A stretch of DNA of 64,000 nt from a virus (Duplodnaviria; Caudoviricetes). Below are positions 31,301-58,016 of the stretch, in pieces. The stretch is from the IMG/VR virus record IMGVR_UViG_3300042298_000319, positions 1,486 through 65,485 of that record; one strand, written 5' to 3'. Within the stretch, counting starts at the first letter, position 1. The number at the start of each line of letters is the position of its first letter. The position numbers were made by a program, and so were the translations under genes. The notes beneath the pieces were generated by a model. That model did no database searches and was not told the origin of the DNA. It saw only the letters and a program-made list of their open reading frames with translations.

Positions 31301-34300
31301 GTACGACCCTAAAACAGATACGTTCTACTTCACCAAAGACGGTATGGATGAGATGACCGTCCTGCATGAGATTGTTCACGCAGGCACGATCAAGATTCTG
31401 TACGCATTTAAGACCAACCCTAATAGCCTGACTCGTGAGCAGCGAGAAGCCGCTGAGCAGATCAATAAAGTATACGAGTTTGCTAAGAAGAAATTAGAAG
31501 GCAAGTATGCCAATCAGCTAGAGAACGTGTATGAGTTTGTTAGCTACGCGCTAACCGACCCACGCTTCCAAGAAGAGCTATCGCGTATACAAGCGCCTTC
31601 TCTTGCCAGATATACAAAGGCGCCTCTAGGCGCACCGTCCGGCTTTAACATGCAGACGGTTTGGTCGCACTTGACCAAAGCTATGATGAAGTTGTACGAC
31701 CTAACAAAGGCTGCAACTAGGTTCTTTGAAATTAAGCCAGACTTGTATGACCAAGTGTCAAGGGCATTTGGCGGCGAGAGATACACCAAGCAGAAACTAG
31801 AAATAAACAAAGGCGTACAACGCGAAGTAGCTGTTTATCTTGAGACAGAAGATAAAAAGAGGGGGGAACTAAGCCCCGGTGTACGACTGACGTTTGAGTC
31901 TGTTAGAAATCTAAAAGACGATGTGCAAGAACGTCTTGAAGAAAACTACCCAGATGCGTTTGAAGACACGTCAGACCAAGGCGTCTTAGACTTTGTAAAC
32001 AAGTACCTAAAAGACAAAGCGTTTGCAGAAGAAGTCGATAAGACGACTGCTGACATTTACAAACAAGGTAAAGTTGGGCTGTCCAAACAAGCTGGTTTTC
32101 AAGGCAACGCGCTGCTTGAGGTTACCCAAGCGTTCCAAGACATTCTAGCTGCGCCAGAGGCGGGCATCGACATAGAGGCTCTACCAGCTAAACAGGCTAA
32201 GCCAACTATACAGGCCCCGGCTGGTGGTTCTACAGATATTAACGAGCTGCGTGACAGCATCCCTAGCCCGTCGTTCAACGCTAGACAAGTAGTTAAGACA
32301 TTTAGCTTGAGTAAATTTACGGAAGCTGCGGTGCGCATTTTCCAGAACGACCGTGCCGCTATTAAGAATTGGCAGCGCAGAATGTGGCTGACAGGTCGGT
32401 TAGTCGCCTACTCTACAGGGTTCAACAACATATACGATCAGCTGACGCTGTCTTCTGGTAACGCCCACTGGCTGTATACGCAATACGTTCAAGAGCATAA
32501 CGAGGCTGTGCGCGAAGCAATAGCCGATTACGCAAAAGCCCGCAAGCTAGATATGGACACGGCGTTGAAAGAGCTTGGCATGTTTGCGGTGGCCTTGCAT
32601 GAACCTGAGCGGCGTGAAGTCCTCTATTTGCGTACAGTCGATCTATCCGATAAACCAATACTTATCGACAAAGCTACAAAGACGCCTATCTCCCCACGAG
32701 AAGCGCGTGACGCAATCTTTAAGTATCTTGACTCAAACAAGTTAACTTTAGCTGACGCTAAGTATTTACGTAAGACGCTGGAAGATATTGTCAATGACAA
32801 GAGTAACTTGGACAGCACTGTAAGTCCTACTCTGCTAGACCGTAACGACCAGAAGTACGCTGTGGCGGGCTACACACCAGCCCAAGTTAAGGCAATGATC
32901 GCCAACTATAACCAACACAAAGCGGCGGCAGACAAAGTGTTGGACAAACTTAAAGCTGTAAACGAAGCCACTCTTGAGCTTAACAAGATGGCTAATTACA
33001 TGTCTGAGTACGCCAATAACTATTTGATGTTCTACGGGTTTAACAGCTACGTTCCGTTTAAGGGCAAGAACTTTAACGAAGACAAAGCCGACATGTTCAA
33101 CCATGACGGGCGCAAGTTGGGCGGTGACTTCCAAGAACAGCAACATACGTTTGAAGGTCGCTTGACGGTTCCTGATAACCCGTTGCTACAAGTTATGGCA
33201 GACGGTGCGAAAGCCGCTATGCGGGCTGGACGGCGCGATGTGACACAGGCCATCTACAATGCAGTGAAAGAAAAAACATTAGATGGCGAGATCATAGAGG
33301 AAGTAGATTTTAAAGACCGCGCCAATGACGACTTACTGCAAAGGCTTAAAGGGGACACAAAAGTATTCCATTACATGCCTGACGGTAAGGTAGCTATTAT
33401 TCAGATTAATGATACGCAACAACGCGAGGCTATCCGCCGCACTTACCGCGATACCAACCCTGCGTTGGACTACATGGTTAACACCATGAATAACCTAACT
33501 GGCAAAGTTGGGCAGATGCACACCCGCTTCAAGCCGTCGTTCGCCCCTGTTAACTTTGTGCGTGACGTGCTGACTAACGCTTGGACTATTGGTGCTGAAG
33601 GCAAGGGGTTACTTGGCCCACTGCAATCGTTCCGTTATCTAAGTTCCGTTGCACTAAACATAGTCAAGGGGGACTTAATTAGATCATGGCGTGCCGCTGC
33701 GCTGTACTCACAAGGCAAAACTGGGGTACTTGAGCGGCTGGCAAAGAGTAATCCCTACTATAAAGACGTGCTGGATTACTATGAGTCAGGCGGCAGAGTG
33801 TCTTACATACAAGGCATCGCGCCAAAAGGTCAGTTAGACCAGCTTCTTAAAGCCCCAAGTGGCAAGATTGACGTAAGCGGCGTTACTCGCTTGTTTGATA
33901 TTTGGGTCGATACGTTTGAAACTGCTTCGCGTGTGGCGGCGTTTAGGCTAACTAAGTCAAACGAGATGGCTAAGCTATCTAAACAACCCGGCTTGTCTAA
34001 GAAAGAAATAGAAGAAGCCGCGACCAAGACAGCTGCGGCGTTCGCCAAGAACCTAGCTAACTTTGAGCAAGTAGGTGAGTGGGGTAGAAGTCTTGGTGCT
34101 CTGTTCATGTTCTACCGCCCATCAGCTACTGGTGCAGTGCGTGCTATGGATGCTGTTGCCCCGGCGTTTCGCAATAAAGAGTCGGTAAAACAAAGCTTGC
34201 CTGAATACGCCCGCGCTGCGCAAATCCGCCATGAGCTTGGTAAAAACCCTACGGCTAAGAAAGAAGCAGAGCTAAAAGCAGAATTAGCTACGTTGGATAA

Positions 34301-46703: not shown

Positions 46704-46918
46704 GGCGCACCTCTCTCCCTTATCGCTGCGGCTATCGCCAACGTGCCATAGCCCTCTATGCCCATCTGTTCAACCAACGTAGCTATCGCTTCACGGTCTG
46801 CTGAAGTGATAAGACGCGCAAGCGCCTCCAAACTGTTGACCGATTCTTTTACGTTGCCCTCGTATCTGTGAAACTGAAATCCTGCCTCGTGTGCCATCCT
46901 GATCAAATCTTCGCGCAC
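46700..46918 (-). CDS. Hypothetical protein, paralog of 46497
   Basis: Same AIRERGAP C-terminus. Confidence 0.65.
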   Translation of the reverse strand: MREDLIRMAHEAGFQFHRYEGNVKESVNSLEALARLITSADREAIATLVEQMGIEGYGTLAIAAAIRERGAP

Positions 46919-46963
46919 TTTGTTCTCCCGATCAAGAAATAAATATTAATCAAACTTTACAAA

Positions 46964-47236
46964 TCAATAGTCGTCCTCGATAAAATAACTCGGTACGCGA
47001 TCTTCTATGCGACGCCGTATCTCAACTTTTGTTTTGTTGATCTTTGCTACATCGGGTTTGGTGTACAGCCCACGCGCATCTGGCTTTATCTTTTCAGTCA
47101 CTGGTTTCAAATAGAGTTCTTCCATCGTATAAAAACTTTCTTTGCAACCTGTACAACGGCGCTGTCTTCGTATCCCCTTTTCTGTTTTTATTGTATTGAC
47201 GACACATGATCTTTTATCACCGCATTGGCAAAACAT
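46964..47236 (-). CDS. Zn-ribbon protein (NrdR N-terminal-like)
   Basis: CQCG....VVNT.....IRRQRRCTGC...FYT.E. Confidence 0.7.
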   Translation of the reverse strand: MFCQCGDKRSCVVNTIKTEKGIRRQRRCTGCKESFYTMEELYLKPVTEKIKPDARGLYTKPDVAKINKTKVEIRRRIEDRVPSYFIEDDY

Positions 47237-47257
47237 AATTAAGCACCTTGAATAGAC

Positions 47258-47293
47258 AAAAAAATAGCGATTCAGGTCACCCTGAACCGCTAT
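47258..47293 (-). terminator. Intrinsic terminator whose stem contains the TTCAG-N6-CTGAA palindrome
   Basis: Minus strand ATAGCGGTTCAGG-GTGA-CCTGAATCGCTAT-TTTTTT. Confidence 0.7.
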
Positions 47294-47300
47294 ATAAAAG

Positions 47301-47807
47301 TTAAATGTGTTGCGCGAGAATCTCACGCTCCAAGTACCACTTCGCTTTACGTAGGTCTTCTACGCGATTACCTTTGTGGTCGGCTCGTGTAATGTACTTC
47401 ACCACGTTGCCCAAGTTATAGTTGAGCTGCTTGGCCTCGATGAAGTCAATCGTCTCAATCCCTCCTGTGGTGTAGTGCGGTGGGTTGTTAACAAAGTCCA
47501 CATTCGAATTACCAAACTCGTAGTGCGTAACTTGCGGCACGTCTCCCGAACCCCGCATACGCGTCTTGTAACGTGGTGTAGTATCCACTGATGAGGATGG
47601 GATCAACCTCGGATTCGGCTGTACTACATACTTCGCCAACGGCGAACCCGCTGCGATTAGATCGACTACCTTATCCTTCAACGTCTTTCGCACGTAATAC
47701 ACATTAGCGATGTTAACGCCCAAAGCTGTTGCAATATCTTTTGGTATCGCGTTTGGGTGCTTCTTCATGTATGCGCGAATACGCTTTGCGTCAGTTCTTT
47801 TAGCCAT
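47301..47807 (-). CDS. HTH-like domain fused to DUF3310 (SaV/T7 gp1.7-like) domain
   Basis: VNNPPHY..GGIETIDFI...GNVVKY..R...K...EDL.KA.WYL; N-terminal PKDIATALGV..A.VY. Confidence 0.8.
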   Translation of the reverse strand: MAKRTDAKRIRAYMKKHPNAIPKDIATALGVNIANVYYVRKTLKDKVVDLIAAGSPLAKYVVQPNPRLIPSSSVDTTPRYKTRMRGSGDVPQVTHYEFGNSNVDFVNNPPHYTTGGIETIDFIEAKQLNYNLGNVVKYITRADHKGNRVEDLRKAKWYLEREILAQHI

Positions 47808-47808
47808 C

Positions 47809-48015
47809 TTAGTTTCCCTCTCGGTTGTGTTTAAATAAATAGTCATCACGATACTCGGATGGTGGTGTCCATCCATGCTTACGCCAGACTGCTTGCACGT
47901 TCGCCCCCGGCTTCCACTTAAAGTCATCTATCAGACGACTATGTTTTGGCTGAGAGCGAAAGATTCCTGCTTCGGGTACGACCATGTAGTCATCCCCCAC
48001 GACTCTGAATTTCAT
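47809..48015 (-). CDS. Hypothetical protein
   Basis: F.W.PGA.VQ.VWRKHGW.PPSE. Confidence 0.65.
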   Translation of the reverse strand: MKFRVVGDDYMVVPEAGIFRSQPKHSRLIDDFKWKPGANVQAVWRKHGWTPPSEYRDDYLFKHNREGN

Positions 48016-48292
48016 GGTTTATTAACTCCTCTAGTTGTGAGACGTTAGTCTCGTTAATCAACAAAGCAATGCCACCGCACTTGCGTATGTCCTCTAAGTT
48101 TTTTAGTTGAAGCGCAGTTGGCTTGCCGCCGTTGGCTTTGTACTCAACAGCGACAAACCACCCACGATAACAACCAACGTCATCAGGTACACCGCTTCGA
48201 CCATACCCACCAGAGAACGGAGGAAAGTGATACATCCCCATCTTGGTAAGTATGGCTCGGCCTTGCTTCTTAACTTTAGCTTCGGGTGTCAC
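47990..48292 (-). CDS. VRR-NUC domain nuclease
   Basis: TPEAKVK, GVPD, VEYKA, PTALQ. Confidence 0.88.
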   Translation of the reverse strand: MTPEAKVKKQGRAILTKMGMYHFPPFSGGYGRSGVPDDVGCYRGWFVAVEYKANGGKPTALQLKNLEDIRKCGGIALLINETNVSQLEELINHEIQSRGG

Positions 48293-48647
48293 CTTTTAAC
48301 TCTTCCAGTTGTGTTTCCGTCAAAATTACCACCATGTATCGCTTGGATAATTGCCAGCCGATAGTCTCAAACCCTTCGAACGGAAGCATTGAATACAACA
48401 TGATTGCAAACGATGGGTTATCATGCTCAGTCAACGTATCGTCAATTAACAGTTCAGGTTTGGCTGAAGCCTTAATCATCGACAGCTTCAGCGCAAGAAA
48501 GTCAGGCAACGTGTCCGACGTAAACTTTCGTACAAAATTATCTCCAACGAACACGGTATGTATATCCCCTTCCTGATAAATAGGAACGCGATAATACTTC
48601 TGACTCTCGTCCTCTACATTAGCTGTAAGCGGCGATAAGTACATCAT
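48276..48647 (-). CDS. Hypothetical protein
   Basis: ATGA-coupled. Confidence 0.65.
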   Translation of the reverse strand: MMYLSPLTANVEDESQKYYRVPIYQEGDIHTVFVGDNFVRKFTSDTLPDFLALKLSMIKASAKPELLIDDTLTEHDNPSFAIMLYSMLPFEGFETIGWQLSKRYMVVILTETQLEELKGDTRS

Positions 48648-49597
48648 ACAAGGAACAACCATCTAGGCTTGGCCGGAAAGAAATCATGACGCCATCCGTC
48701 AGTATCTACTCTGTAGAGACCTAACTCCTCGTTGTAACTATCACGGCCTAACGGAAAGAACTGCTCCTCGCCAACGAACCTCATGTCTGGGTCATCCTTT
48801 TGTCCAAGTACTTTGTACATAGCCAAGCGAGAGGCGAAGTCTGGGTCATCCATGAATCTATCAACGCGCTCACACTTGACTGCTACAGGTCTAGCATCGT
48901 CTACACGATAGTCCTCATCAAGTTTGATGCCAATGTTTATCTCACCTTTGAGGAACGTATCTGTGCTGTCGTACATGAGAAACTTTACTGGTTTGTCAAA
49001 CACTTCTTTGACTATATTTAGTTTTTCCTCTCTAGTCTTATCGACCTTATCGTAATCGTCAAGAATTTTCTTAAATTTCTCCATTGATTCTAACGATAGA
49101 TTCTCCAAAGGCTGATAGCCAAAAGCTACCTTCAACAAACGATGCAGAGACTCGCCGTTCAGAGGATTATGTTTACCCACATTCTTTTGTTTTGCCAACA
49201 CGATATTAACTAGATCGTAAAAGTGATTAAGTTTGACAAACACCTCTAACGAATCATTGGGCAACAGGTGATACTTTTCTATGTTACGCATCAGTACAGA
49301 CACTTTCGCGGCAGCATAGGTCATCCTGTCCTCTGTCGTACGCCCGCGCTCCTTCGGTGTAATTACTGTGCGGAAAGTGTATTGCCCATCACGATTAAAA
49401 CCAGCAATACCCAATACCATGCCCTCGTTGTTTGCTATGTAGAAACAGTTGTTCTCGTCGTCTACAGACCAGTTGGATTGTTTTATCCCTATCACATGCA
49501 GCTTGTACTTATGAACAATCTCACGAACCAGCGGGTATGCTTTCGTCATGATGATTTGCGATTCAGCTATACGTGAACTCATAATTGGATGGATCAT
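48644..49597 (-). CDS. Hypothetical protein
   Basis: 317-aa ORF with RBS. Confidence 0.7.
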   Translation of the reverse strand: MIHPIMSSRIAESQIIMTKAYPLVREIVHKYKLHVIGIKQSNWSVDDENNCFYIANNEGMVLGIAGFNRDGQYTFRTVITPKERGRTTEDRMTYAAAKVSVLMRNIEKYHLLPNDSLEVFVKLNHFYDLVNIVLAKQKNVGKHNPLNGESLHRLLKVAFGYQPLENLSLESMEKFKKILDDYDKVDKTREEKLNIVKEVFDKPVKFLMYDSTDTFLKGEINIGIKLDEDYRVDDARPVAVKCERVDRFMDDPDFASRLAMYKVLGQKDDPDMRFVGEEQFFPLGRDSYNEELGLYRVDTDGWRHDFFPAKPRWLFLV

Positions 49598-49598
49598 G

Positions 49599-50846
49599 TT
49601 ATTCCCCTTCGATGATTAGTTTCTTACCGCTTGGTGGTACAAAGCGGCTGTTGCCTTTCACAAGCCACAGCGTATCGACTGTCGCCGCCCATTGGATGTT
49701 GTCCTCAAGGTAACCGTCAGTCAGTATCACCGCGCAGTCTGGTGTGAGTTTGTTCTTGATGATGTACTCCGATACACAGGAAGCCCGTGTACCACCGCCG
49801 CCTTGTGGCTTAAGTAGCTTTCGGATGTTGTCGTAGTCATCAGTAAACACTTGCTCCCCATGCACATGCGTATCCCACCACAGCACACGTACCTTCTCTG
49901 GCCTACAAGTCTCACACGCAGCAGCAATCTGTACTGCTACCGCAGCCAAATCTGCGTCACCTATCGAGCCTGAAGTATCCACAGCGAACAGCACTTCTGT
50001 GATGGTCTCAGACTCAACGCTTGGCGCAAGAATGTCATTGGCAAGCAAACTGCGATTGAACCTACGCCACGTTAGTTCATCTGCGCCACGTACCGATGTC
50101 TTGACGTAATCCTGCAACTCCTTACGCCAATCGACAGGGGATACCAGAGACTCCTCTAGCTCTCGCGGCATCTTAGTTCCAAGCCGACCAGCAAGCATCC
50201 CGCCCTCGCGCAACGCTTTGCCGATCTTCTCTTCTAACTCTTTCATCTCTTCCGGTGTCTTACCCTCCGTACCTTGTGCGTCATGTTCGTCGGAGCCTTC
50301 GGTTGAATGTGTCTTACCGTTAACTACGACTTCACCCTTCCCTGAACCGTTAGATTGTCCGCTACCGTCCGGCTGTGTCCGGCTTTGTCCGCTACTGTCC
50401 GGCGGTGGTGGGTTCTGCTTCTTGAGATCGTTGTATATCTCACGCACAGACCAGCCATCGTAGTGAGGATCAAAGATGCCCCCCTCCGGTAGCTTGCATA
50501 GCTTCTTGTCATTCAGTCTGTTGATGATGTTGTTGACCACGATGTCCATTGCCACGTTAGCCAGCAAGCGGTTCTCATCCATCAAATCCTTGTGTCGAGG
50601 AATGTGCATCAACGCTACATGTAAATTCTCATGCAGAATCAACCCGCGTAGTTCTTCGTCACTCAGCTTCTCAATGAACTTGGCTGAATACTTCTTGTTG
50701 AGCCCATCGGTGTACGCAGTAAACATCTCGTCTGATACATGAGATTCACCTGCCATGATCACGCCTGAGTACAACGCCGTCTCTGGATGTCGCATCAATG
50801 CGATATGATTCTTTTTCATCCTCTCTTCTGGTGTGATGCTAATCAT
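49599..50846 (-). CDS. Metallopeptidase-like plus VWA domain protein (DUF2201-like)
   Basis: TAYTDG, HENLH, DTSGS MIDAS, GGGGT, LTDGY. Confidence 0.88.
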   Translation of the reverse strand: MISITPEERMKKNHIALMRHPETALYSGVIMAGESHVSDEMFTAYTDGLNKKYSAKFIEKLSDEELRGLILHENLHVALMHIPRHKDLMDENRLLANVAMDIVVNNIINRLNDKKLCKLPEGGIFDPHYDGWSVREIYNDLKKQNPPPPDSSGQSRTQPDGSGQSNGSGKGEVVVNGKTHSTEGSDEHDAQGTEGKTPEEMKELEEKIGKALREGGMLAGRLGTKMPRELEESLVSPVDWRKELQDYVKTSVRGADELTWRRFNRSLLANDILAPSVESETITEVLFAVDTSGSIGDADLAAVAVQIAAACETCRPEKVRVLWWDTHVHGEQVFTDDYDNIRKLLKPQGGGGTRASCVSEYIIKNKLTPDCAVILTDGYLEDNIQWAATVDTLWLVKGNSRFVPPSGKKLIIEGE

Positions 50847-50872
50847 CGGTTCACCCTTTCCTGAACTGTTAA

Positions 50873-52009
50873 TCAAAGATACTTGTAGTTAGTCATCGCC
50901 CATTGCTTGACTGTCTCATTGCCAGCAGCCAGCTTGGTGGTGCGCTTGTTGTCCAACAGCATCGTAAAGAAAAGACTCTGTAACTCGTCTTGCTTCATAC
51001 GCTGAATGAACTGCATAAAGCTAGACAAATCATCCTGCGTTTGAATCTCATCGACTGCATTGATCATCGTCATGCACAAAGCCGCAATGTCCTCTGGAAG
51101 AATAATTCCCATTGGGTCTTTGATAATTTCTCTGACCGGTGTTACTTGAGACTCCATGTCGATGAACACAGACAACAGCTTCGCACCCGACAGGCCAATC
51201 GTGCCAGCCAACGCAACATCAGCCGCCGCTTTGCCCCACACGTTGCGGTTCTTGACGATACGGTTGCACTTCGACAACGAACGTGGCGAGATGAACGATA
51301 CCGTCTGCGTAGGCTTAGTCGGGTTGAAGATGAACTCGTTGTTCTCCTGCCCACCATCCATGTAAGAGTTCAACACGCGAGGATTCATAGCAACGAACGC
51401 ACGAATCGTCGAACTGATACCGTTATCACCAGCCCACTTGATCCAACGCCGAGCATCAGGCTTCTCCATACGCATGAGACAAATACGGTTGCCCTGATGC
51501 GCTTGCATCGCGTCACCCACACCATCGCTTGAGTTATTAGATGTAGCAAAGACGATAGACCCAATAGGCAGCGGTCGATCACCTACCATGCGCTCTAACT
51601 TCAGGCGAGTAAACAGCGTACCCATCAGCTTGGGAACCTTGAACACCTCGTCAAGCATGATTACTTTAGGCTTGTCCGAATCTAGCTTGAACAGCGCGCC
51701 GATGTATTGCTCAAGAGACTTCTCAACGTGATTAGGGATAGTGCCAGAGATGTCCATGTAGTCCTTCGATGGGCAATCCACGTAGATGTAGTCATACTTG
51801 TCTGTAGGACAAACGTCTTTAGGGCGACGCCACTTGTCGCCATTGTTCTGAGCAATGAGTTTCAGAATAGATGTCTTACCTACTCCGGGCTCGCTGATAA
51901 TGACAGGCGTGACATGATCGTCTGATTCTTCAGTTGTCTCTGACATTACAGGAATCATCGCAGCGAGCTGCTCGATGTTGACGGTGTCGGTGAAATGAAT
52001 CTTAGCCAT
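50873..52009 (-). CDS. MoxR-like AAA+ ATPase
   Basis: PGVGKT, MLDE, ATSN, SPRS; adjacent to the VWA gene. Confidence 0.85.
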   Translation of the reverse strand: MAKIHFTDTVNIEQLAAMIPVMSETTEESDDHVTPVIISEPGVGKTSILKLIAQNNGDKWRRPKDVCPTDKYDYIYVDCPSKDYMDISGTIPNHVEKSLEQYIGALFKLDSDKPKVIMLDEVFKVPKLMGTLFTRLKLERMVGDRPLPIGSIVFATSNNSSDGVGDAMQAHQGNRICLMRMEKPDARRWIKWAGDNGISSTIRAFVAMNPRVLNSYMDGGQENNEFIFNPTKPTQTVSFISPRSLSKCNRIVKNRNVWGKAAADVALAGTIGLSGAKLLSVFIDMESQVTPVREIIKDPMGIILPEDIAALCMTMINAVDEIQTQDDLSSFMQFIQRMKQDELQSLFFTMLLDNKRTTKLAAGNETVKQWAMTNYKYL

Positions 52010-52038
52010 GATTTGTTTCCTTTCGGGTTGTGAGTTAA

Positions 52039-52944
52039 TTAGATACTACGTGGTGCAAACTTCGACAGGATGTCATCCATCTCGTCTTTTACTTGTGACC
52101 GTACTGCATCTGAATCACGCAACGCTTCTGCATCAACGCCGCGCAACGCTAGGTCAAGCCTAGTTACTGCTTCATCCAACGCTGAATCGTTAGTCAGGTT
52201 GAAGTCTTTGAAGAGACGACAATACTCTTTCGCCTTGTCCACCGTACCCTCGTATATCTTGCGCTTCTTCTGCTTGGTCTCGCCATCGGTCGTTGTTGTC
52301 TCATCGTACCCGCAGCAATGCGCGAGTGACTCCATGACATCAACCAACCTCTCTACCTGATCGTTCAGGATGCCCTGAACTATTGTTTCCGCTTGGCGAC
52401 TGTAATGTGTATTCAAGTCATTAGCCAAGTCCTGCGCTATCGCGCACCGATAGTCGCCCACCGGAACCTCGCTGGTGTACAGCGTGACCCCGAACTTGTT
52501 ACGCACCTGATCCACCGTCGGGTAGTCATCGCGGTTAAACATATCGCCCTGCGCGAACGCCATGTTCGACACCGTTGTGTTGTAGTTGTTACAGAAGTTG
52601 TCTAAAAGACGCGTGAACTCAATCTCGTGCCAGTCAAACTCCTGCATGAACTTGGGCAACGCTACGTACGGCAGATAGTCCTGCGACTTGTTCCACGGAT
52701 AGGTCGAACGCTGTATCCAGTTGTAGATCGTCTGACGATAGTTCAGCAACGCCTTGTGGTCGACGTTGTTCGCCAGCAAGTTTTTAACGAACCTGCCTGC
52801 ATTCGTATCGGCTTTCTTTGCGGTAGTAACCTCATTGCTGATGGCTCGGTCTTGCTTGGTAGCTGACCAGACGTTGACCTCGACTGCGACCAGAAGGCCG
52901 CTGGTTGCGAGTGACGTGATGTGCTGTGGTTTATTGAGTTCCAT
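52039..52944 (-). CDS. Conserved helical phage protein (DUF3150-like)
   Basis: WSATKQD, TYPW, FNRDDYP, FNLTND. Confidence 0.65.
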   Translation of the reverse strand: MELNKPQHITSLATSGLLVAVEVNVWSATKQDRAISNEVTTAKKADTNAGRFVKNLLANNVDHKALLNYRQTIYNWIQRSTYPWNKSQDYLPYVALPKFMQEFDWHEIEFTRLLDNFCNNYNTTVSNMAFAQGDMFNRDDYPTVDQVRNKFGVTLYTSEVPVGDYRCAIAQDLANDLNTHYSRQAETIVQGILNDQVERLVDVMESLAHCCGYDETTTTDGETKQKKRKIYEGTVDKAKEYCRLFKDFNLTNDSALDEAVTRLDLALRGVDAEALRDSDAVRSQVKDEMDDILSKFAPRSI

Positions 52945-53032
52945 GATGTTTCCTTTCGTTTCGTTGATGAGTGATTCAGGTGACCCTGAACCGTTAACTG
53001 CGTTGCGTGCTACTTTCCCTTACCACACTATA

Positions 53033-53061
53033 ATTATACTATAACTTGACATATTAGTCAA
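53033..53061 (-). promoter_or_regulatory. Sigma70 promoter with an overlapping palindrome
   Basis: TTGACT-17-TATAAT; ACTTGAC-N6-GTCAAGT covers the -35 box. Confidence 0.85.
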
Positions 53062-53079
53062 GTAGTTTACTCGTGTTTT

Positions 53080-53187
53080 TTAGATGACCCAGAACCATAA
53101 CTGCGGATACGTGTAGGCAACCCAACCACCCAAGCACGTAAGCGCAGCTGGCGCAGCCGCCAGAGCAAGCAGAAGCCAGTTACCCAC
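53080..53187 (-). CDS. 35-aa hydrophobic peptide (absent from ORF track)
   Basis: GGAGG RBS; MGNWLLLALAAAPAALTCLGGWVAYTYPQLWFWVI. Confidence 0.5.
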   Translation of the reverse strand: MGNWLLLALAAAPAALTCLGGWVAYTYPQLWFWVI

Positions 53188-53410
53188 GGCGCTTGCCTCC
53201 CCTGACGCTAAAGATTTTGTCGCCATCCTCATCCAGCACCGCATAGCCACTTTCGGTCAGCTCAATAGCCCAATCCCTACGCGCTATGCGGTCGAGCATG
53301 TACATAATCTTATGCCTAAAAATCTTTTTACTGACGTGTTGTGCTACTACCACACAGCCAAGTACTATCGTTGCTATCTCGTAGAAGTTATCCATCTCAT
53401 AGTTCTCCAT
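53180..53410 (-). CDS. Small membrane protein
   Basis: One TM helix; early operon. Confidence 0.55.
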   Translation of the reverse strand: MENYEMDNFYEIATIVLGCVVVAQHVSKKIFRHKIMYMLDRIARRDWAIELTESGYAVLDEDGDKIFSVRGGKRRG

Positions 53411-53747
53411 GCGTTTCTTTAAAAGTGGTTGCTTCGCTTCCAGTATCCCCCTCGGCTACCTGATCCGCAGTCAAGTTGGCTATCTGCACCAGCTTCTCCT
53501 CCACCTGCTCGTCGGTCAGCCAGCCGATCACGTCACCCTCTGAACAGACATCTTTCGGGTAGATAAGTACGTAGTTACCCCCCTCCCCCTCGAACCGGAT
53601 AACGCCTAGCTCCCACAGACCCTCGTCGCCTCCGTAGGTAAACTCACCCCTGACAACAGACGCACCAGCCCCGTTGGGGAAGCGGTAAAGTTTCTGTACA
53701 GACGTAGGCTCATGCTTGATCACCACGTCGTAAGGTCTTATATCCAT
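53397..53747 (-). CDS. Conserved early phage protein
   Basis: YRFPNG.GASVV...YGG..GLWEL.V...DVIGWLT. Confidence 0.75.
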   Translation of the reverse strand: MDIRPYDVVIKHEPTSVQKLYRFPNGAGASVVRGEFTYGGDEGLWELGVIRFEGEGGNYVLIYPKDVCSEGDVIGWLTDEQVEEKLVQIANLTADQVAEGDTGSEATTFKETHGEL

Positions 53748-53866
53748 CCCATCCTCCCTTTGGTCTTGACGATCAACGCCAGCCAGAATTCTCTCGCCTG
53801 ACGGTCATGGTCTATTCCCCGGAGAACGCGCTTGGCATCGCGTATTACTTTCTTATATCGTTTCAT
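53738..53866 (-). CDS. 42-aa basic protein (absent from ORF track)
   Basis: GGAGG RBS, ATGA overlap; MKRYKKVIRDAKRVLRG... Confidence 0.55.
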   Translation of the reverse strand: MKRYKKVIRDAKRVLRGIDHDRQAREFWLALIVKTKGRMGWI

Positions 53867-54030
53867 TTCAGCCCTCCCTGAAGAGTTACTTTCCTCACGG
53901 CTGCATCAGCCGACGCTGCGCGTACGAACGCCGCTGTCCATGCCTTCGGATGCCAGCCGCACGTACCTAGTTGCCCTTGTGGGCGAACACACCACTCGCC
54001 ATTGCGTAGTTGAATAGCTTCTAGTTTCAT
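53863..54030 (-). CDS. 55-aa protein (absent from ORF track)
   Basis: ATGA overlaps at both ends; MKLEAIQLRNGEWCVRP... Confidence 0.55.
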   Translation of the reverse strand: MKLEAIQLRNGEWCVRPQGQLGTCGWHPKAWTAAFVRAASADAAVRKVTLQGGLK

Positions 54031-54239
54031 TTCACCAGCCCTCCCTTGTTGTTCAACCCCTTCAAGTCAGCCAAGTCTGTGACCAACACGTAATTGCTCT
54101 TGTGCATCGGTGCGATGGTGCGCTTGATCCCCCGTGCCGCTTGCTCTCCGCATGGTTTACAAGTCTTTGCCCCGATAGCCCACCTAGCTAGGGCGTACTC
54201 CGCCCCGCACAACATGCACTCTGGAACGTAATCTTCCAT
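54027..54239 (-). CDS. C4 zinc-finger protein (DksA/TraR-like finger)
   Basis: CMLCG......R......CKPC; GGAGGGG RBS. Confidence 0.65.
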   Translation of the reverse strand: MEDYVPECMLCGAEYALARWAIGAKTCKPCGEQAARGIKRTIAPMHKSNYVLVTDLADLKGLNNKGGLVK

Positions 54240-54258
54240 GTCACCCCTCCCTGAACTG

Positions 54259-54627
54259 TTAATCAATGTGTATGCTTCGACTGAGTCTGAGTCTGCCGCC
54301 GCATAACCCTGCCTCGTAATGCTCCACATCGTCGTAACTCTCGCCCACACGCATAAACTCGTAGCCGTACTTGCTGTCGTGATGCTCCGCGCAGAACGTC
54401 TCCTGAAAGTCAGTAAAGAGTTTCTCTAGCCGACGTATGGATGGATAGTCTGGATACCACTTCCATTGCTCCGCAGTAAACACCACCTCGGTATCATGGA
54501 ACTCAAAGTAATCTATCTCATCGTCGTGTATGTGTTGCTTTAGCCACGTAGTCATGATTGCGCCCGCGCCCTTGTCATCGGGTTTGCTGGTGTACATGAT
54601 GCACGTCACGTCAGAACGGTAGCCCAT
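54259..54627 (-). CDS. Conserved early phage protein
   Basis: MGYRSDV...KWY..Y...F.RVGE..DD.E. Confidence 0.7.
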   Translation of the reverse strand: MGYRSDVTCIMYTSKPDDKGAGAIMTTWLKQHIHDDEIDYFEFHDTEVVFTAEQWKWYPDYPSIRRLEKLFTDFQETFCAEHHDSKYGYEFMRVGESYDDVEHYEAGLCGGRLRLSRSIHID

Positions 54628-55126
54628 CTTCCCCTCCCTTCGCATAGAAGTTGTTCGATATAGCCACGTCGATGTTCAAGTCCAAGTACCGCCGATATGC
54701 GCCCAGACGTACCACGTCGCTGTCTTCGATAGTCCTGTACACGTTGAACTTCACCCAGACATGTTCTAGCGCATAGCCCTCGGTCGGCTCGTCACCCTCG
54801 CCCCACCACACGCTGTCATCGTCGTAGTCAGGCAGGAACGTCTCCTTGTAGTCATGGATCAACGCGTTTAACTGCTCGTAGTCGTGTGATGTATGAAATG
54901 TTCCACCCACGATAATCCCACGCGGCTCCATCACGTCACACCACCCGCCGTATGACGTGTTGAACCCCTGCTTTTCCCACCACCCCTTGAGAACAGCAAA
55001 CTCGCCTCTGGCTCGTGCCACCTGAGACTGTTTGTCCTCCTCGGTGTAGTACTTCAGGATACGGTTGTCCACCTCAGCAGTCGATGTGTAAAAGGCAACG
55101 TGTGCCTTGAGAAGTTTTATGCTCAT
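54611..55126 (-). CDS. Hypothetical protein
   Basis: ATGA-coupled 171-aa ORF. Confidence 0.65.
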   Translation of the reverse strand: MSIKLLKAHVAFYTSTAEVDNRILKYYTEEDKQSQVARARGEFAVLKGWWEKQGFNTSYGGWCDVMEPRGIIVGGTFHTSHDYEQLNALIHDYKETFLPDYDDDSVWWGEGDEPTEGYALEHVWVKFNVYRTIEDSDVVRLGAYRRYLDLNIDVAISNNFYAKGGEDGLPF

Positions 55127-55323
55127 AGGTCACAGTCTCCACCCAACCCCTGCATGTTCTCCCACAGGTCTAACTCCAGCTGAATCCACAGCGGCATGTC
55201 GTCGGCTTCGGTTACTGTGGCTAGAAACTCCTGCTCGGCATCTGCCAACGCTTGACCCATCAGGTCAGGCATATTCTCGCGCCATTCTTGCATCTCGATC
55301 ATTAGTTGTTTGATACGTCCCAT
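55123..55323 (-). CDS. Small acidic protein
   Basis: AAAGGAG RBS. Confidence 0.65.
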   Translation of the reverse strand: MGRIKQLMIEMQEWRENMPDLMGQALADAEQEFLATVTEADDMPLWIQLELDLWENMQGLGGDCDL

Positions 55324-55356
55324 GATGTTGCTCCTTTCGATTAATTAAATAACAGT

Positions 55357-55554
55357 TCAGATCACGCTGAACGCTTGATCGTCACCGTCGTAGAACCAGT
55401 CTGTGTAACTGTAGATACTGCCCTCGTTGCTGAAGTACTGCCCATGCAGCGGCTCTTCTACGTATTCTTCGAACCCTGCTTCCTCCAGAGAAACTATTAG
55501 GCCACGCTCCCGCGCAACGTCTTCCCACTCCATCTCATCGACTAAATCAAACAT
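55357..55554 (-). CDS. Small highly acidic protein
   Basis: GAAAGGG RBS; first gene after the 55654 promoter; D/E- and aromatic-rich. Confidence 0.65.
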   Translation of the reverse strand: MFDLVDEMEWEDVARERGLIVSLEEAGFEEYVEEPLHGQYFSNEGSIYSYTDWFYDGDDQAFSVI

Positions 55555-55653
55555 GGTGAACCCTTTCGTAAATAGTGAGTCAGGTGACCCTGAACTGTTA
55601 AATAAAAATGCTGGTGTTGGATGCTATCTAGCTACATTGCTCTCCAACAGTAT

Positions 55654-55684
55654 AATTATAGCATAACTTAACATATAAGTCAAG
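55654..55684 (-). promoter_or_regulatory. Sigma70 promoter with an overlapping palindrome
   Basis: TTGACT-17-TATAAT with extended TG; AACTTGAC-N6-GTTAAGTT. Confidence 0.85.
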
Positions 55685-55699
55685 TTGTTTGGGTGACTT

Positions 55700-56110
55700 T
55701 TTTAGGCAGGGGTTTGTTCTGATTTTGGGCTGGTGAGATGAGTTTTGGAACGAAAAAAGGGCTGAAAACCCGCATTATTCCGTGAGGGTGTTCTGAGGAA
55801 AATGGTTGCCAGAACAGAAAAAGTACGCGTAAGTGTTTGTATTTCTTATTTTATTTTTTAACATAAACTATATATAGTTGTTCTGTTCTAGAAAAAATAT
55901 GAGTACGCTTCCTTCGGAGTGAATTTTGCACTTGCCACAGGACTCGACCGATCCGTAAAAAATCGTGCGTTTCCCTCCCCCTACCCCAAAAACACCGGAA
56001 CATTGGAACAAACGCTGAAAACCCGCATAAATCCTAGCTTTTCTTGTTCTGCCTGACCCTGTTTGTTCCGGCTTTTTTGGAACAAGCTATCGGAACAAGG
56101 CAACTCAGCG
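55700..56110. other. Candidate replication origin
   Basis: ORF-free; about 11 TGTTCY/RGAACA boxes in both orientations, an AT-rich core (55839-55900) and a duplicated GCTGAAAACCCGCAT. Confidence 0.5.
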
Positions 56111-56242
56111 TCATTTAAGCAAACGGTAAATGATGCAACTCACAATAATTTCCGCCGAACGAGCCTTTTCCATCAACATGGTGTAAAAGTTAATTTAACG
56201 AGTCAGGCATAGCTGAACTCTTATTTAACGCGCTTGCCCGCG

Positions 56243-56272
56243 CACGCGCGAGGACAAAGAACTGGTTTCAAA
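56243..56272. repeat. Cassette-junction repeat, copy 1
   Basis: CACGCGCGAGGACAAAGAACTGGTTTCAAA. Confidence 0.85.
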
Positions 56273-56283
56273 AACGCAGGCGC

Positions 56284-56316
56284 AAAAAAGCCGACGCGTC
56301 TTGCGACGCGTCGGCT
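56284..56316 (-). terminator. Intrinsic terminator
   Basis: AGCCGACGCGTC-GCAA-GACGCGTCGGCT-TTTTT. Confidence 0.9.
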
Positions 56317-56320
56317 AAAA

Positions 56321-56968
56321 TTACTTCACATCATACTCTTTCCAGAATGCCGCACTAGCTCTTGCTAGTTTCTTGCTATCGGCAGTAGGATCATTTCCCC
56401 TTACTTCGGCAGTCTTGCATCGGGTCTTGAATGTCTCAAACTCTTTTTCCAGAAACTCAATCATCGCAAGAGTAGCTGCTCTGGTCTGCGTTTTCGGATT
56501 ACGTCGAGCATACTCTCGCTTTGCCGCAGCTATCAGATCATCCATGCAATTCTTGCAATACTTGTTGACCAGATCACGTAAAGCAAAGATCACATTGTAC
56601 TTAGCAAGATCATCGCGTTTCATCGCGCCGATAGCTTGCTGTGTGAAAGAATACGCATATGCGACGCCGATATTGACTACTTCTAGCGGCTTTGCATCCG
56701 GCGGCAGCTGGTCTACTGGAATGTAATTCCCGTCGATTACTGCGTATTCAGTAGCTGGATTATTAGCCTCATACCGCTTACGAAAACCAGCTTTAAGCTG
56801 GTCAATGTCCTCTTTAGCGGGCTCTGTTAAAAAGTTTTTAATGTTATCTAAAGCATACGCGCCATTCTTTTTGAGAATGTCCGAGCTACCAGCTACTGAA
56901 TAGCCGAAAGCCTCAAGGTCTTTGAAGGTTGATTCTACTGCTACTGCGATTTGGCTTTTCTTTGCCAT
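56321..56968 (-). CDS. Early protein, paralog A
   Basis: AAAGGGG RBS; aligns over its full length to 57189. Confidence 0.85.
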   Translation of the reverse strand: MAKKSQIAVAVESTFKDLEAFGYSVAGSSDILKKNGAYALDNIKNFLTEPAKEDIDQLKAGFRKRYEANNPATEYAVIDGNYIPVDQLPPDAKPLEVVNIGVAYAYSFTQQAIGAMKRDDLAKYNVIFALRDLVNKYCKNCMDDLIAAAKREYARRNPKTQTRAATLAMIEFLEKEFETFKTRCKTAEVRGNDPTADSKKLARASAAFWKEYDVK

Positions 56969-57017
56969 GATAATGCCCCTTTGCGTAAGGATTAAACCGG
57001 CACTAATTTCATCCGGT

Positions 57018-57056
57018 AATTATGTTATAGCTGATATCTAGCGAGAAAATCAATGT
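57018..57056 (-). promoter_or_regulatory. Early promoter (cassette type)
   Basis: TTGATT-18-TATAAC; shares TCRGCTAWAASATAAT with 57897 and 58869. Confidence 0.6.
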
Positions 57057-57110
57057 TTCAGGCATGGGTGAATCGTTAATTAGCGCATGACGCACACGCG
57101 CTCTGGCACG

Positions 57111-57138
57111 CGCGCGAGGACAAATAACTGGTTTCAAA
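57111..57138. repeat. Cassette-junction repeat, copy 2
   Basis: CGCGCGAGGACAAATAACTGGTTTCAAA. Confidence 0.85.
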
Positions 57139-57147
57139 CGCAGGGCG

Positions 57148-57184
57148 AAAAAAAACCCTGCCAACCTTTCGGCTGGCAGGGTTG
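57148..57184 (-). terminator. Intrinsic terminator
   Basis: AACCCTGCCAGCC-GAAA-GGTTGGCAGGGTT-TTTTTT. Confidence 0.9.
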
Positions 57185-57188
57185 AGTG

Positions 57189-57848
57189 TTACTGCTTGTT
57201 TAACATCTCATACTTGACCTTGAAAGCGATAATCGCTTCGCGTAAGGCCTTGCTGTCTGCGGTAGGATCGTTCCCTCTCGCCTCTGCTGTCTTGCAGCGC
57301 TGATTCCAAGCATCAAACTGCTTATCAAGGAACTCACCAAAAGCCAGCGTAGCAGCGCGTGTGGTTGATTCAGGATTGCGCTGCTTTTCTACCTTCCTTG
57401 CTGCTGCTTTCAAGTCTGACAAGCAGTTGAAGCAATACTTGTTTACCTTGTCACGCAGGTCTTGCAATATTTGATACTTGGGCAAATCCTCAGCCTTCAG
57501 CGCACCATATGCTTGCTGAGTGAACGAAAAGGCGTAAGCCACACCAATGTTGACGTTCTCCAGTACCTTAGCGTCAGCCGGTAGTTGATCGCGTGGTATG
57601 TAATTACCGTCAACGACAGCGTAAGCAACATCGGGGTGAGTTTCACTGTAACGCTGACGAAAACCTTCTTTCAGTTCGCTGATTGCTTCCTTAGCCGGTT
57701 CGGTAAGAAAGTTTGCAATGTTATCCAAAGCCCAAGCCCCATCGAGGCGTGATGCGTCAGACTTTTTAGCCACGCTATAACCAAAGTCGCGGTAGGACTT
57801 GTACGACACTTCCTGTACTGCTAATGCAATGGCAGTTTTCTTAGCCAT
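57189..57848 (-). CDS. Early protein, paralog B
   Basis: AAAGGAG RBS; shares ALDNI.NFLTEPAKE.I..LK.GFR and GNDPTADSK. Confidence 0.85.
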   Translation of the reverse strand: MAKKTAIALAVQEVSYKSYRDFGYSVAKKSDASRLDGAWALDNIANFLTEPAKEAISELKEGFRQRYSETHPDVAYAVVDGNYIPRDQLPADAKVLENVNIGVAYAFSFTQQAYGALKAEDLPKYQILQDLRDKVNKYCFNCLSDLKAAARKVEKQRNPESTTRAATLAFGEFLDKQFDAWNQRCKTAEARGNDPTADSKALREAIIAFKVKYEMLNKQ

Positions 57849-57896
57849 GATATTGCTCCTTTATGTAGTTGATAAAAGGCCAGTATTTATCTGGCA

Positions 57897-57935
57897 TAAT
57901 TATCTTTTAGCTGACACTACAGATAAAATCAACGT
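57897..57935 (-). promoter_or_regulatory. Early promoter (cassette type)
   Basis: GAAACGTTGATTTT...TCAGCTAAAAGATAAT. Confidence 0.55.
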
Positions 57936-57986
57936 TTCAGGATAGGCTGAACCGTTGGCGTGCGCGCTTGCGCCCGCGCCCTGACC

Positions 57987-58016
57987 CACGCGCGACGACA
58001 CATAACTGGTTTCAAA
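57987..58016. repeat. Cassette-junction repeat, copy 3
   Basis: CACGCGCGACGACACATAACTGGTTTCAAA. Confidence 0.85.

Follow-up and report, generated by a model that had tools for sequence, protein, structure and literature searches.

A lake-water phage carries about 13 copies of one short palindrome across its early genes, and related phages that carry a different palindrome at the same places also have a different version of the first early protein, so the two look like a regulator and its binding sites changing together. The sequence analyzed (the window) is a stretch of 64,000 nucleotides, positions 1,486 to 65,485 of IMG/VR record IMGVR_UViG_3300042298_000319, a complete phage genome of 65,485 bp. 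The protein in question, here named EP1, is encoded by two paralogous genes, EP1-A and EP1-B, at the head of the early region. We favor, with moderate confidence only, the reading that the palindromes are double-stranded DNA operators for EP1, a probable autoregulator and roadblock; that EP1 itself is the binder, that the target is DNA and not RNA, and that the effect is repression and not activation are inferences made without binding data.

A palindrome array in the leftward early region

The motif TTCAG-N6-CTGAA occurs seven times in the window, whereas 100 dinucleotide shuffles gave a mean of 0.10 and a maximum of 1, and the whole 65,485-bp record contains only these seven copies. The first-pass annotation, which had reported 13 palindromes confined to the early region, is confirmed: its 7 perfect, 5 one-mismatch, and single two-mismatch copies are all present. 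In total, there are 19 hits with at most one mismatch against 2.28 expected; 16 of them lie in 46790 to 57951, and the 3 outside (19362, 21063, and 29369) correspond to the chance level. One-mismatch hits at 46790, 49562, 51929, and 52171 had not been listed in that annotation. Position 5/12 is C or G independently on each arm, and the looser motif TTCAS-N6-STGAA gives 12 hits against 0.33 expected, all in 46790 to 57951.

The extension CTGAAC(T/C)GTTAA is seen at 50850, 52975, 54240, and 55579, with near variants at 50331 and 57057; the outer TAAC element is present on both sides in about half of the sites. On the coding (minus) strand, the spacers at 50850, 53867, and 54240 are Shine-Dalgarno-like, and an ATG follows 0 to 3 nt after the site. 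The TTGATT hexamers beside sites 57936 and 57057 were read by eye as -35 boxes, and the consensus promoter scan does not list these two promoters, although the same layout as that at 57936 is seen in relatives. The positions of the sites and associated features are collected below.

Coordinates of palindromes, genes, promoters, and terminators in the window
Coordinates	Strand	Feature	Context
57936..57951		Site 1, perfect	Ends 3 nt upstream of the TTGATT (-35-like) hexamer of the EP1-A promoter
57057..57072		Site 2, 1 mismatch, TTCAS class	Ends 3 nt upstream of the TTGATT of the EP1-B promoter
56202..56217		Site 3, 1 mismatch	After the EP1-B terminator, in a third copy of the EP1-type upstream region that has no gene
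55579..55594		Site 4, 1 mismatch	In the 5' leader of promoter P3, 24 nt before the ATG at 55554
55356..55371		Site 5, perfect	Last arm supplies the TGA stop of ORF 55357-55554; 32 nt before the next ATG
54240..54255		Site 6, 2 mismatches	Spacer GGAGGG acts as the Shine-Dalgarno sequence, ATG directly after
53867..53882		Site 7, perfect	Spacer GGAGGG acts as the Shine-Dalgarno sequence, ATG directly after
52975..52990		Site 8, perfect	In the 5' leader of promoter P4, upstream of the 301-aa gene
52364..52379		Site 9, perfect	Inside the 301-aa gene (codons VQGILN)
50850..50865		Site 10, 1 mismatch, TTCAS class	Over the Shine-Dalgarno sequence of the DUF2201 gene
50331..50346		Site 11, 1 mismatch, TTCAS class	Inside the Gly/Ser linker of the DUF2201 gene
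49562..49577		TTCAS-class hit, 1 mismatch	Inside the 317-aa gene; not conserved in relatives, status uncertain
48453..48468		Site 12, perfect	Inside the 128-aa gene
47264..47293	-	Intrinsic terminator (13-bp stem) with site 13 (47271-47286, perfect) as its core	End of the array
46790..46805		TTCAS-class hit, 1 mismatch	Just beyond the terminator
57189..57848	-	EP1-A, 219 aa	First early gene; candidate binder
57154..57183	-	Strong terminator	Closes the EP1-A unit
56321..56968	-	EP1-B, 215 aa	62% identical paralog in its own promoter-terminator unit
56289..56316	-	Strong terminator	Closes the EP1-B unit
55655..55683	-	Promoter P3 (TTGACT-17-TATAAT)	Site 4 roughly +54 to +69 downstream of its likely start
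53033..53061	-	Promoter P4 (TTGACT-17-TATAAT)	Site 8 roughly +36 to +51 downstream of its likely start

Clade-specific palindromes and the EP1 cassette

Relatives from IMG/VR (loci designated L005, L009, and so on) carry clade-specific palindromes at the same places, such as TCCAC, CCCAC, CTCAC, TACAC, TCCTAG, and CCTGACA. Over 66 typed sources (65 loci and the window), the density is about 1 site per kb from -4 to +2 kb around the ATPase start and tails off after +8 kb; in the 133.6 kb covered between -10 and -6 kb there is 1 site, and chance gives about 0.015 per kb. Orthologous intergenic sites keep their flanks but change their core, as seen for window 47271 against L005 5610 and window 50850 against L005 2142, where L005 carries the TCCTAG core. 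Sites inside genes are under selection beyond coding needs. Site 52364 is kept by codon choice in 7 of 7 TTCA-type genomes and broken by GTG in 4 of 5 TCCTAG-type genomes that encode the same residues; L009, a TCCTAG-type phage, nevertheless has an intact TTCAG-N6-CTGAA at this position. Site 48453 is kept in 6 of 6 against 0 of 4, and L009 encodes the same residues (ASAKPE) with codons that break the motif. Site 50331 is kept in 12 of 12 against 0 of 4, and the same position carries each phage's own arms in L031, L032, L047, L064, L072, and L092. Similarly, the ATPase codons DDPLP(D/T)GSQ read TCCG..CGGA in L064 and CCCA..TGGG in L072, although the two proteins are 97% identical.

The motif type tracks the EP1 cassette. 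In 4 non-overlapping sister pairs with different motifs (ATPase 87 to 97% identical), EP1 is 26 to 33% identical, whereas in 14 same-motif pairs (ATPase 84 to 100% identical) it is 62 to 100% identical (exact Mann-Whitney P = 0.00065); the controls do not differ (301-aa protein, P = 0.51; ATPase, P = 0.44). In 4 of 4 pairs examined, blastn similarity runs on both sides and drops out just over the EP1 gene or genes. However, motif types were labeled from perfect 4+4 arms, 6 loci by hand, and the 18 sister pairs were picked by hand from a tree; counted as label changes, the motif fits the EP1 tree no better than the ATPase tree (16 changes on 78 rows against 15 on 56 rows). In addition, first early genes of phages often diverge fast for other reasons, such as anti-defence, so part of the association could be linkage. 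EP1 is the first early gene in every locus with enough upstream DNA, and each copy sits behind palindrome plus promoter and ahead of a strong terminator.

EP1 has no recognizable DNA-binding domain: there is no Pfam, PHROG, or NCBIfam hit, its structural model (pLDDT 86) has no PDB or BFVD fold match at E ≤ 0.001, and its pI is only 8.6 to 8.8. It is predicted to form a symmetric homodimer, with a score of 0.80 against a best of 0.00 among 3 controls. That mark was reached by 20 of 30 proteins solved as pairs of one chain and by 1 of 23 solved as single chains, although these counts hold only roughly because our own alignment was used; the runs agree in at least 92% of contacts, and the partner pLDDT is at least 83. 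In the conserved motif R132-x-x-x-x-x-Y138, residue 137 is K in 21 of 24 unique EP1s whose arm position 2 is T and in 0 of 94 others, and residue 133 is E in 28 of 51 with C at arm position 1 and in 1 of 66 with T. This residue-base link is not significant once relatedness is allowed for, since only 3 independent pairs lie on well-supported branches (2 to 3 go the same way, none the other way; sign test P = 0.25 to 0.5).

The interpretation in the first-pass annotation was partly supported. A site for a dimeric protein, rather than a crossover site, is supported by the conserved arms, the variable spacers, and the independent variation of the two half-sites. Of the four binders it proposed, the EP1 paralogs are the ones the comparative data pick out. 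The HTH-DUF3310 protein does not track the motif, being 81% identical between the window and L009, which carry different motifs; the ORF at 38628, which lies outside the fetched loci, has no Pfam or NCBIfam match, so its designation as an HTH is unverified; and a host factor appears unlikely, although the hosts are unknown.

Models for the array

In the favored reading, each EP1 monomer reads one 5-bp arm (TTCAS), the 6-bp spacer is not read, and a weaker outer element, TAAC/GTTA, lies 2 nt outside each arm. EP1 is made at once from two sigma-70-type promoters, each with an operator touching its -35 box, so it would regulate itself. As it accumulates, EP1 would occupy about 13 operators spread through the early operons, in the 5' leaders of the two consensus promoters, over ribosome-binding sites, inside genes, and in the terminator that closes the region, where it most likely blocks or meters host RNA polymerase, giving a timed shut-off of early genes. 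A site centered near -47 is not a classic repressor position, so activation is not excluded.

The main alternative, which we consider possible but less likely, is that EP1 or another phage factor binds the transcribed hairpin on RNA, as a translational operator, a nut/boxB-like antitermination signal, or a processing or stability element for early mRNAs. All sites lie in the transcribed early strand region; 201 of 430 sites in relatives (47%) have a Shine-Dalgarno sequence plus start codon within 60 nt, against 23% of random positions, with a modal distance of 20 to 35 nt; and three window sites put the Shine-Dalgarno sequence in the loop with the ATG directly after the stem. Four of 13 sites fold far better than shuffles (z-scores from -3.8 to -6.8), and in L018 one arm position changes G.T to A-T, which keeps pairing on the coding strand only. 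However, the stem sequence is fixed within a genome while the loop is free, which appears to be the reverse of hairpin operators such as boxB and MS2-type sites. The closing pair is often unpaired, as C.C or G.G (5 of 10 sites in L014), the window mismatches include no wobble pairs, predicted hairpin energies run from -0.4 to -19.3 kcal/mol, and 5 of 13 sites have a z-score no stronger than about -1. Sites 1 and 2 sit after a terminator and before the promoter, so they would rarely be transcribed, and one L021 site is the same asymmetric 18-mer (1 spacer base differs) in the flipped orientation.

The remaining alternatives appear unlikely. The association is with a DNA segment and not strictly with a protein, and the segment also holds conserved noncoding elements (the CCAGTTnTnTGT plus GC-rich block and a 5' leader hairpin), so the binder could be a small unannotated ORF or an RNA from the EP1 regulatory region; yet EP1 genes fill most of the swapped segment in the 4 pairs examined, the predicted symmetric dimer fits a palindrome, and two residues in its most conserved motif follow the arm bases in raw counts. 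EP1 might instead be an enzyme that nicks, recombines, or primes replication at the sites, given that R132 (129 of 138) and Y138 (132 of 137) are nearly invariant, that R164 is invariant in A1, and that site 3 borders a 500-nt noncoding stretch with GAACA/TGTTC repeats and an AT-rich core that looks like an origin. Nevertheless, EP1 has no similarity to any recombinase, relaxase, or nuclease fold, the variable spacers argue against a fixed cleavage geometry, and the sites are placed relative to promoters, leaders, and a terminator. Still more doubtful is that the repeats are linkers for recombination or terminator-promoter cassettes kept alike by gene conversion, with no specific binder: they do flank variable small early genes, one is a terminator, two or three sit beside promoters, and the EP1 cassette itself is exchanged between phages, but at least 3 conserved sites (52364, 50331, and 48453) lie inside genes and are kept or recoded by codon choice, only 10 bases are conserved, too few for homologous exchange, and gene conversion does not explain why all sites of a genome switch together with one cassette. 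Recruitment of a host transcription factor is equally doubtful. The 5-6-5 geometry would be that of CRP-type sites, and no phage RNA polymerase or sigma factor was found, so the phage depends on host polymerase; however, although the hosts are unknown, phages with 94 to 97% identical ATPase carry unrelated arms (TCCG against CCCA, and TCCA against TTCA), and at least ten arm types occur within one phage group.

A more speculative possibility, which we regard as tentative, is that EP1 and its operators form an immunity-like specificity system in a phage that appears to be virulent. EP1, made in the first minutes to time the shut-off of early genes, would also silence a co-infecting relative that carries the same operator type, and escape from such cross-silencing would drive repeated swaps of the EP1 cassette, after which every operator would be recoded, even inside conserved genes such as the ATPase. 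EP1 would then be a new DNA-binding fold in which residues 133 and 137 of one helix read arm positions 1 and 2, giving a natural set of orthogonal regulator-operator pairs (330 clusters at 50% identity).

Comparison with known repeat and operator systems

N4-type hairpin promoters require a giant virion RNA polymerase, but the 2348-aa protein of this phage matches only MORN repeats and LPD38, and no RNA polymerase match was found by Pfam, PHROGs, PDB sequences, or PF00940, the last being a weak search because its control gave no hit. The KorB operators (OB) on plasmid RK2 are likewise palindromic and are used at several places at varied distances from promoters by one regulator that silences a whole set of operons (PMC11790492). 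KorB, however, is a ParB-family CTP-dependent sliding clamp, whereas EP1 shows no match to ParB/KorB structures, and nothing here indicates sliding or a partner like KorA.

The SAS/ESAS repeats of Cluster K mycobacteriophages, of unknown function, are set just upstream of start codons of a subset of genes and conserved across subclusters, and half of them carry an inverted repeat with a variable spacer (PMC3203893). SAS is a 13-bp asymmetric sequence that includes the ribosome-binding site and is found genome-wide, ESAS arms are 17 bp, and no co-varying protein is reported in the text we examined; here, 45% of sites in relatives lie inside open frames. The PeSL cassettes of T4-type phages are also repeated elements in the early, variable part of a lytic phage genome and combine a stem-loop, a sigma-70 promoter, and gene boundaries (PMC2839356, PMC4122927). 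They are intergenic composites of about 100 bp with G/C-tract stems, thought to serve recombination and termination, and have no fixed 5-bp arms, no intragenic copies kept by codon choice, and no linked specificity gene.

The array is most comparable to the stoperators of Cluster A mycobacteriophages (L5, Bxb1). In both, there are many copies of one short site, a few in promoters (2 of about 13 here, or 3 with site 3) and most away from promoters in transcribed DNA, and the consensus differs between related phages; that of stoperators follows the divergence and binding preference of the regulator (PMC6550527, PMC9283540). Stoperators are 13-bp asymmetric sites, 20 to 30 per genome, oriented with transcription and bound by a monomeric immunity repressor of temperate phages. 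In contrast, the sites described here are 16-bp palindromes confined to a roughly 11-kb early region, the genome has no integrase or resolvase match, the candidate binder is a predicted homodimer of unknown fold, and specificity appears to change by cassette swap followed by recoding of every site.

Distribution and anatomy of the palindromic sites

TTCAG-N6-CTGAA occurs 7 times in the window, and all of the copies lie between 47271 and 57951, whereas dinucleotide shuffles gave an expectation of 0.10 and a maximum of 1. The whole 65,485-bp virus record, which has direct terminal repeats and of which the window covers bases 1486 to 65485, contains the same 7 copies and no more. When one mismatch was allowed, 19 hits were obtained against 2.28 expected; 16 of them lie in 46790 to 57951 and 3 lie outside, which is what chance gives for the rest of the window. 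Position 5/12 of the motif is C or G independently on each arm, and TTCAS-N6-STGAA gives 12 hits against 0.33 expected, all in the same region. The first-pass annotation had described thirteen perfect and imperfect palindromes confined to the early region, and every coordinate and detail that it listed checks out, although the finding proved to be more than it had recognized. The hits at 52171 and 49562 are not conserved and may be chance hits or private to this phage; 51929, a one-mismatch hit whose changed base is the last of an arm, is treated as a chance hit without a check of its conservation.

Genes between about 35.5 and 58.8 kb run on the minus strand. The early genes come first and include a MoxR-like AAA ATPase, a DUF2201 metallopeptidase/VWA protein, and a DUF3310 protein; they are followed by the replication genes (PolA, an exonuclease, an SNF2 helicase, and a primase-helicase). 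Terminase, portal, head, and tail genes and the gene for a giant MORN/LPD38 protein, which closes the late operon and probably encodes a polyvalent virion or injected protein, are on the plus strand. No integrase, resolvase, sigma factor, or phage RNA polymerase was found, although the control for the PF00940 search gave no hit anywhere, so that one search is weak. The sequence is present in lake-water metagenomes, but no cultured phage is close: there is no DNA match, and the ATPase matches N4-like phages at about 24% identity. The ATPase and DUF2201 pair is conserved in all 414 relatives and is distantly shared with N4-like phages, and the PHROG label "HNH endonuclease" for the DUF2201 protein looks wrong. 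General literature searches, which did not include the motif string itself or supplementary files, turned up no paper on this phage group.

On the coding strand, the motif reads (T)TAAC(A/G)G-TTCAG-N6-CTGAA, and in about half of the sites (numbered 1 to 13 by decreasing coordinate) the outer TAAC element is mirrored on the 3' side. Sites 1 and 2 end 3 nt upstream of TTGATT hexamers, which are followed after 17 to 18 nt by TAAAAG or TATAAC, ahead of two paralogous genes that we designate EP1-A and EP1-B; these promoters were read by eye and are not listed by the consensus promoter scan. Each paralog is closed by a strong terminator. Sites 4 and 8 lie in the leaders of two near-identical consensus promoters, P3 and P4 (TTGACT-17-TATAAT), whereas sites 6, 7, and 10 carry the Shine-Dalgarno sequence in the spacer. 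P3 and P4 share a roughly 40-bp cassette, TTGACTnATATGTnAAGTTATnnTATAAT, the –35 box of which is one arm of a second 5-6-5 palindrome, TTGAC-N6-GTYAA, with 3 hits (2 places, one counted on both strands) against 0.35 expected. This second palindrome recurs 2 to 3 times per locus in several relatives and may be an operator for another factor. In addition, the element CCAGTT(A/C)T(T/G)TGT, followed by a GC-rich GCGCGC block, lies 45 to 60 nt upstream of sites 1, 2, and 3 and is conserved upstream of EP1 genes in most clades. The 5' leaders of EP1 genes also carry a conserved hairpin (in relatives CCGGATGCAATTnnGCACCGG-like), which suggests a second, RNA-level control of EP1. Between site 3 and P3 lies a roughly 500-nt stretch with no convincing ORF, which carries many GAACA/TGTTC(C) repeats and an AT-rich core; relatives have TTCCAA-type repeats at the same place (near 5733 in locus L019 and near 6762 in L021), and it could be a replication origin or a second binding array.

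Coordinates of selected features in the window
Position	Strand	Feature
57998-58009		CCAGTT(A/C)T(T/G)TGT element upstream of site 1
57879-57895		Hairpin in the 5' leader of EP1-A
57189-57848	minus	EP1-A gene
57154-57183		Strong terminator closing EP1-A
57120-57131		CCAGTT(A/C)T(T/G)TGT element upstream of site 2
near 56985-57010		Hairpin in the 5' leader of EP1-B
56321-56968	minus	EP1-B gene
56289-56316		Strong terminator closing EP1-B
56254-56265		CCAGTT(A/C)T(T/G)TGT element upstream of site 3
55690-56200	minus	Repeat-rich stretch between site 3 and P3
55655-55683		Promoter P3
54027-54239	minus	Small Cys-rich (zinc-ribbon-like) early protein
53033-53061		Promoter P4
52364		Site 9, inside a gene (VQGILN)
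50873-52009	minus	MoxR-like AAA ATPase
50850		Site 10, Shine-Dalgarno sequence in the spacer
49599-50876	minus	DUF2201 metallopeptidase/VWA protein
50331		Site 11, inside the DUF2201 gene (linker)
48453		Site 12, inside a gene (ASAKPE)
47264-47293		Terminator that ends the array; its core is site 13 (47271)
46964-47326	minus	First gene after the array's terminator; NrdR-like zinc ribbon, below Pfam's cutoff (E 4e-5); possible regulator of the next gene class
28332-35378	plus	Giant 2348-aa protein; MORN repeats (residues about 540-630) and LPD38 domain (2042-2211)

Clade-specific palindromes and selection on the sites

To examine the motif in relatives, loci were retrieved from IMG/VR with the ATPase (24 loci), with an ATPase alignment (80 of the 414 stretches that tblastn confirmed as relatives, out of 477 pattern-matched stretches), and with an EP1 sub-alignment (80 of 101). 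Each clade has its own palindrome at the same kinds of place, namely, TTCAC-GTATAC-GTGAA (locus L014), TTTCAYG..CRTGAAA (L021 to L023 and L028), TCCTAG-N5/6-CTAGGA (the closest relatives, with ATPase 86 to 88% identical), CCTGACA-N3-TGTCAGG (L024 to L026), TTCCRTCA-N2-TGATGGAA (L018), and, in the larger set, TCCAC, CCCAC, CCCAG, CTCAC, TACAC, TCCGTCA, TCTGTCA, and AGCGT types. Most share the form xxCAx-N6-xTGxx. Typed by perfect 4+4 arms, with 6 loci labeled by hand from inspection, the 92 sources divide as TCCA 22, TTCA 21, CCCA 20, CCTA 6, TCCG 4, CCTG 3, GCGT 3, TACA 2, CTCA 2, TCTG 1, and untyped 8. Over 66 typed sources (65 loci and the window), the density is about 1 site per kb from –4 to +2 kb around the ATPase start; there is 1 site in the 133.6 kb covered between –10 and –6 kb, and the density declines beyond +8 kb.

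Codon alignments show that the sites are under selection of their own. Site 9 is intact in 7 of 7 TTCA-type genomes and broken by GTG in 4 of 5 TCCTAG-type genomes with the same residues, the exception being L009, which keeps it. Site 12 is kept in 6 of 6 against 0 of 4, and L009 encodes the identical residues with codons that destroy the motif, whereas site 11 is kept in 12 of 12 against 0 of 4. Orthologous intergenic sites keep their flanks but swap the core, as seen for site 13 against position 5610 of L005 and for site 10 against position 2142 of L005. In L064 and L072 the ATPases are 97% identical, yet the same codons spell TCCG..CGGA in one and CCCA..TGGG in the other; the linker of the DUF2201 gene carries each phage's own arms in L031, L032, L047, L064, L072, and L092.

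Association of the motif with the EP1 cassette

All early ORFs of the window were compared with the loci, and only the paralog pair is out of step. It is 27 to 31% identical to the closest clade, which has a different motif, while its neighbors are 60 to 93% identical, and it is 47 to 58% identical to a more distant clade that has the same motif. The small Cys-rich early protein is conserved at 48 to 69% in nearly all clades whatever their motif type. EP1 is present in 1 to 2 copies as the first early gene in every locus with enough upstream DNA, always behind palindrome plus promoter. Among 326 locus pairs with ATPase identity of at least 75%, those at 86% or more split cleanly: with a different motif EP1 is 26 to 38% identical (L064/L092, whose motifs differ by one base, are at 54%), and with the same motif it is 54 to 100% identical. 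When only non-overlapping sister pairs, picked by hand from the ATPase tree, were considered, EP1 was 26 to 33% identical in the 4 different-motif pairs and 62 to 100% in the 14 same-motif pairs (exact P = 0.00065), whereas the 301-aa protein (P = 0.51) and the ATPase (P = 0.44) did not differ. In 4 of 4 pairs examined, blastn shows similarity on both sides and a gap just over the EP1 gene or genes. However, the motif label needs 16 changes on the EP1 tree (78 rows) and 15 on the ATPase tree (56 rows), and by that count EP1 fits no better.

EP1 has no Pfam, PHROG, or NCBIfam family, no PDB sequence match, no named neighbor in the ESM Atlas, and no match among 50,697 phage records. The AlphaFold model is confident (pLDDT 86, mostly helical) but matches nothing in PDB or BFVD at E <= 0.001. 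A profile search finds 330 clusters at 50% identity. EP1 is predicted to form a homodimer, with a score of 0.80 against a best of 3 controls of 0.00; that mark was reached by 20 of 30 proteins solved as pairs of one chain and by 1 of 23 solved as single chains, although these counts hold only roughly because our own alignment was used. The runs agree in at least 92% of contacts, and the pLDDT is at least 83. R132 and Y138 are nearly invariant, and the residues between them vary. In raw counts over 118 unique EP1s, residue 137 is K in 21 of 24 with T at arm position 2 and in 0 of 94 others, and residue 133 is E in 28 of 51 with C at arm position 1 and in 1 of 66 with T. Once relatedness is allowed for, only 3 independent pairs remain on supported branches; none goes the wrong way, but the sign test gives P values of 0.25 to 0.5, so this is a lead and not a result.

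Proposed mechanism and comparison with known systems

We favor duplex DNA as the target, because the arm sequence is fixed and the spacer is free, the two arms vary independently at position 5/12, and the window mismatches are transversions and not wobble pairs. Predicted hairpin energies range from –0.4 to –19.3 kcal/mol, and 5 of 13 sites are no better than shuffles; in addition, two sites lie between a terminator and the next promoter, and one L021 site is the same asymmetric 18-mer (1 spacer base differs) in flipped orientation. In favor of an RNA target are the Shine-Dalgarno sequence in the spacer at three sites and the excess of sites 20 to 35 nt before start codons (47% against 23% of random positions); even so, 45% of sites still lie deep in open frames. 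N4-like hairpin promoters, suggested by the genome layout and the giant gene, were discarded because no RNA polymerase was found. The right flank of 3 sites reads TCACTAT, which resembles a T7-like promoter, but the other sites lack it and no phage polymerase was found. Two sequencing runs labeled RNA-Seq were probably DNA and, as contigs at 90% likeness, showed only short pieces of relatives and low-confidence joints (for example, 47293 to 57109), so they say nothing about transcripts.

In our preferred reading, EP1 is a dimeric early regulator that binds its operator next to its own promoters, which is autoregulation, and also binds about a dozen operators inside the early operons, where it most likely blocks host polymerase and so times early shut-off. 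The association and the selection on the sites are shown, whereas binding, the DNA target, and the sign of regulation are inferred; because the site center near –47 is not a classic repressor position, activation or antitermination is not excluded. If EP1 binds these sites, it would be a DNA-binding family with no known fold, widespread in uncultured freshwater phages, and it would offer an unusually clear natural record of how a regulator and a dispersed set of operators change specificity together, including the recoding of conserved genes to carry the new site. The many arm types would be a source of orthogonal repressor-operator pairs. For annotation, the palindrome marks the early region and its end and predicts which relatives share regulatory specificity.

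KorB operators (PMC11790492), SAS/ESAS repeats (PMC3203893), and PeSLs (PMC2839356, PMC4122927) share single features only with the array described here. The closest working analogue is the stoperator system of Cluster A mycobacteriophages (PMC6550527), the sites of which are asymmetric, genome-wide, and bound by a temperate phage's immunity repressor; binding by EP1 would extend stoperator-like, genome-region-wide control to a phage in which no integrase was found.
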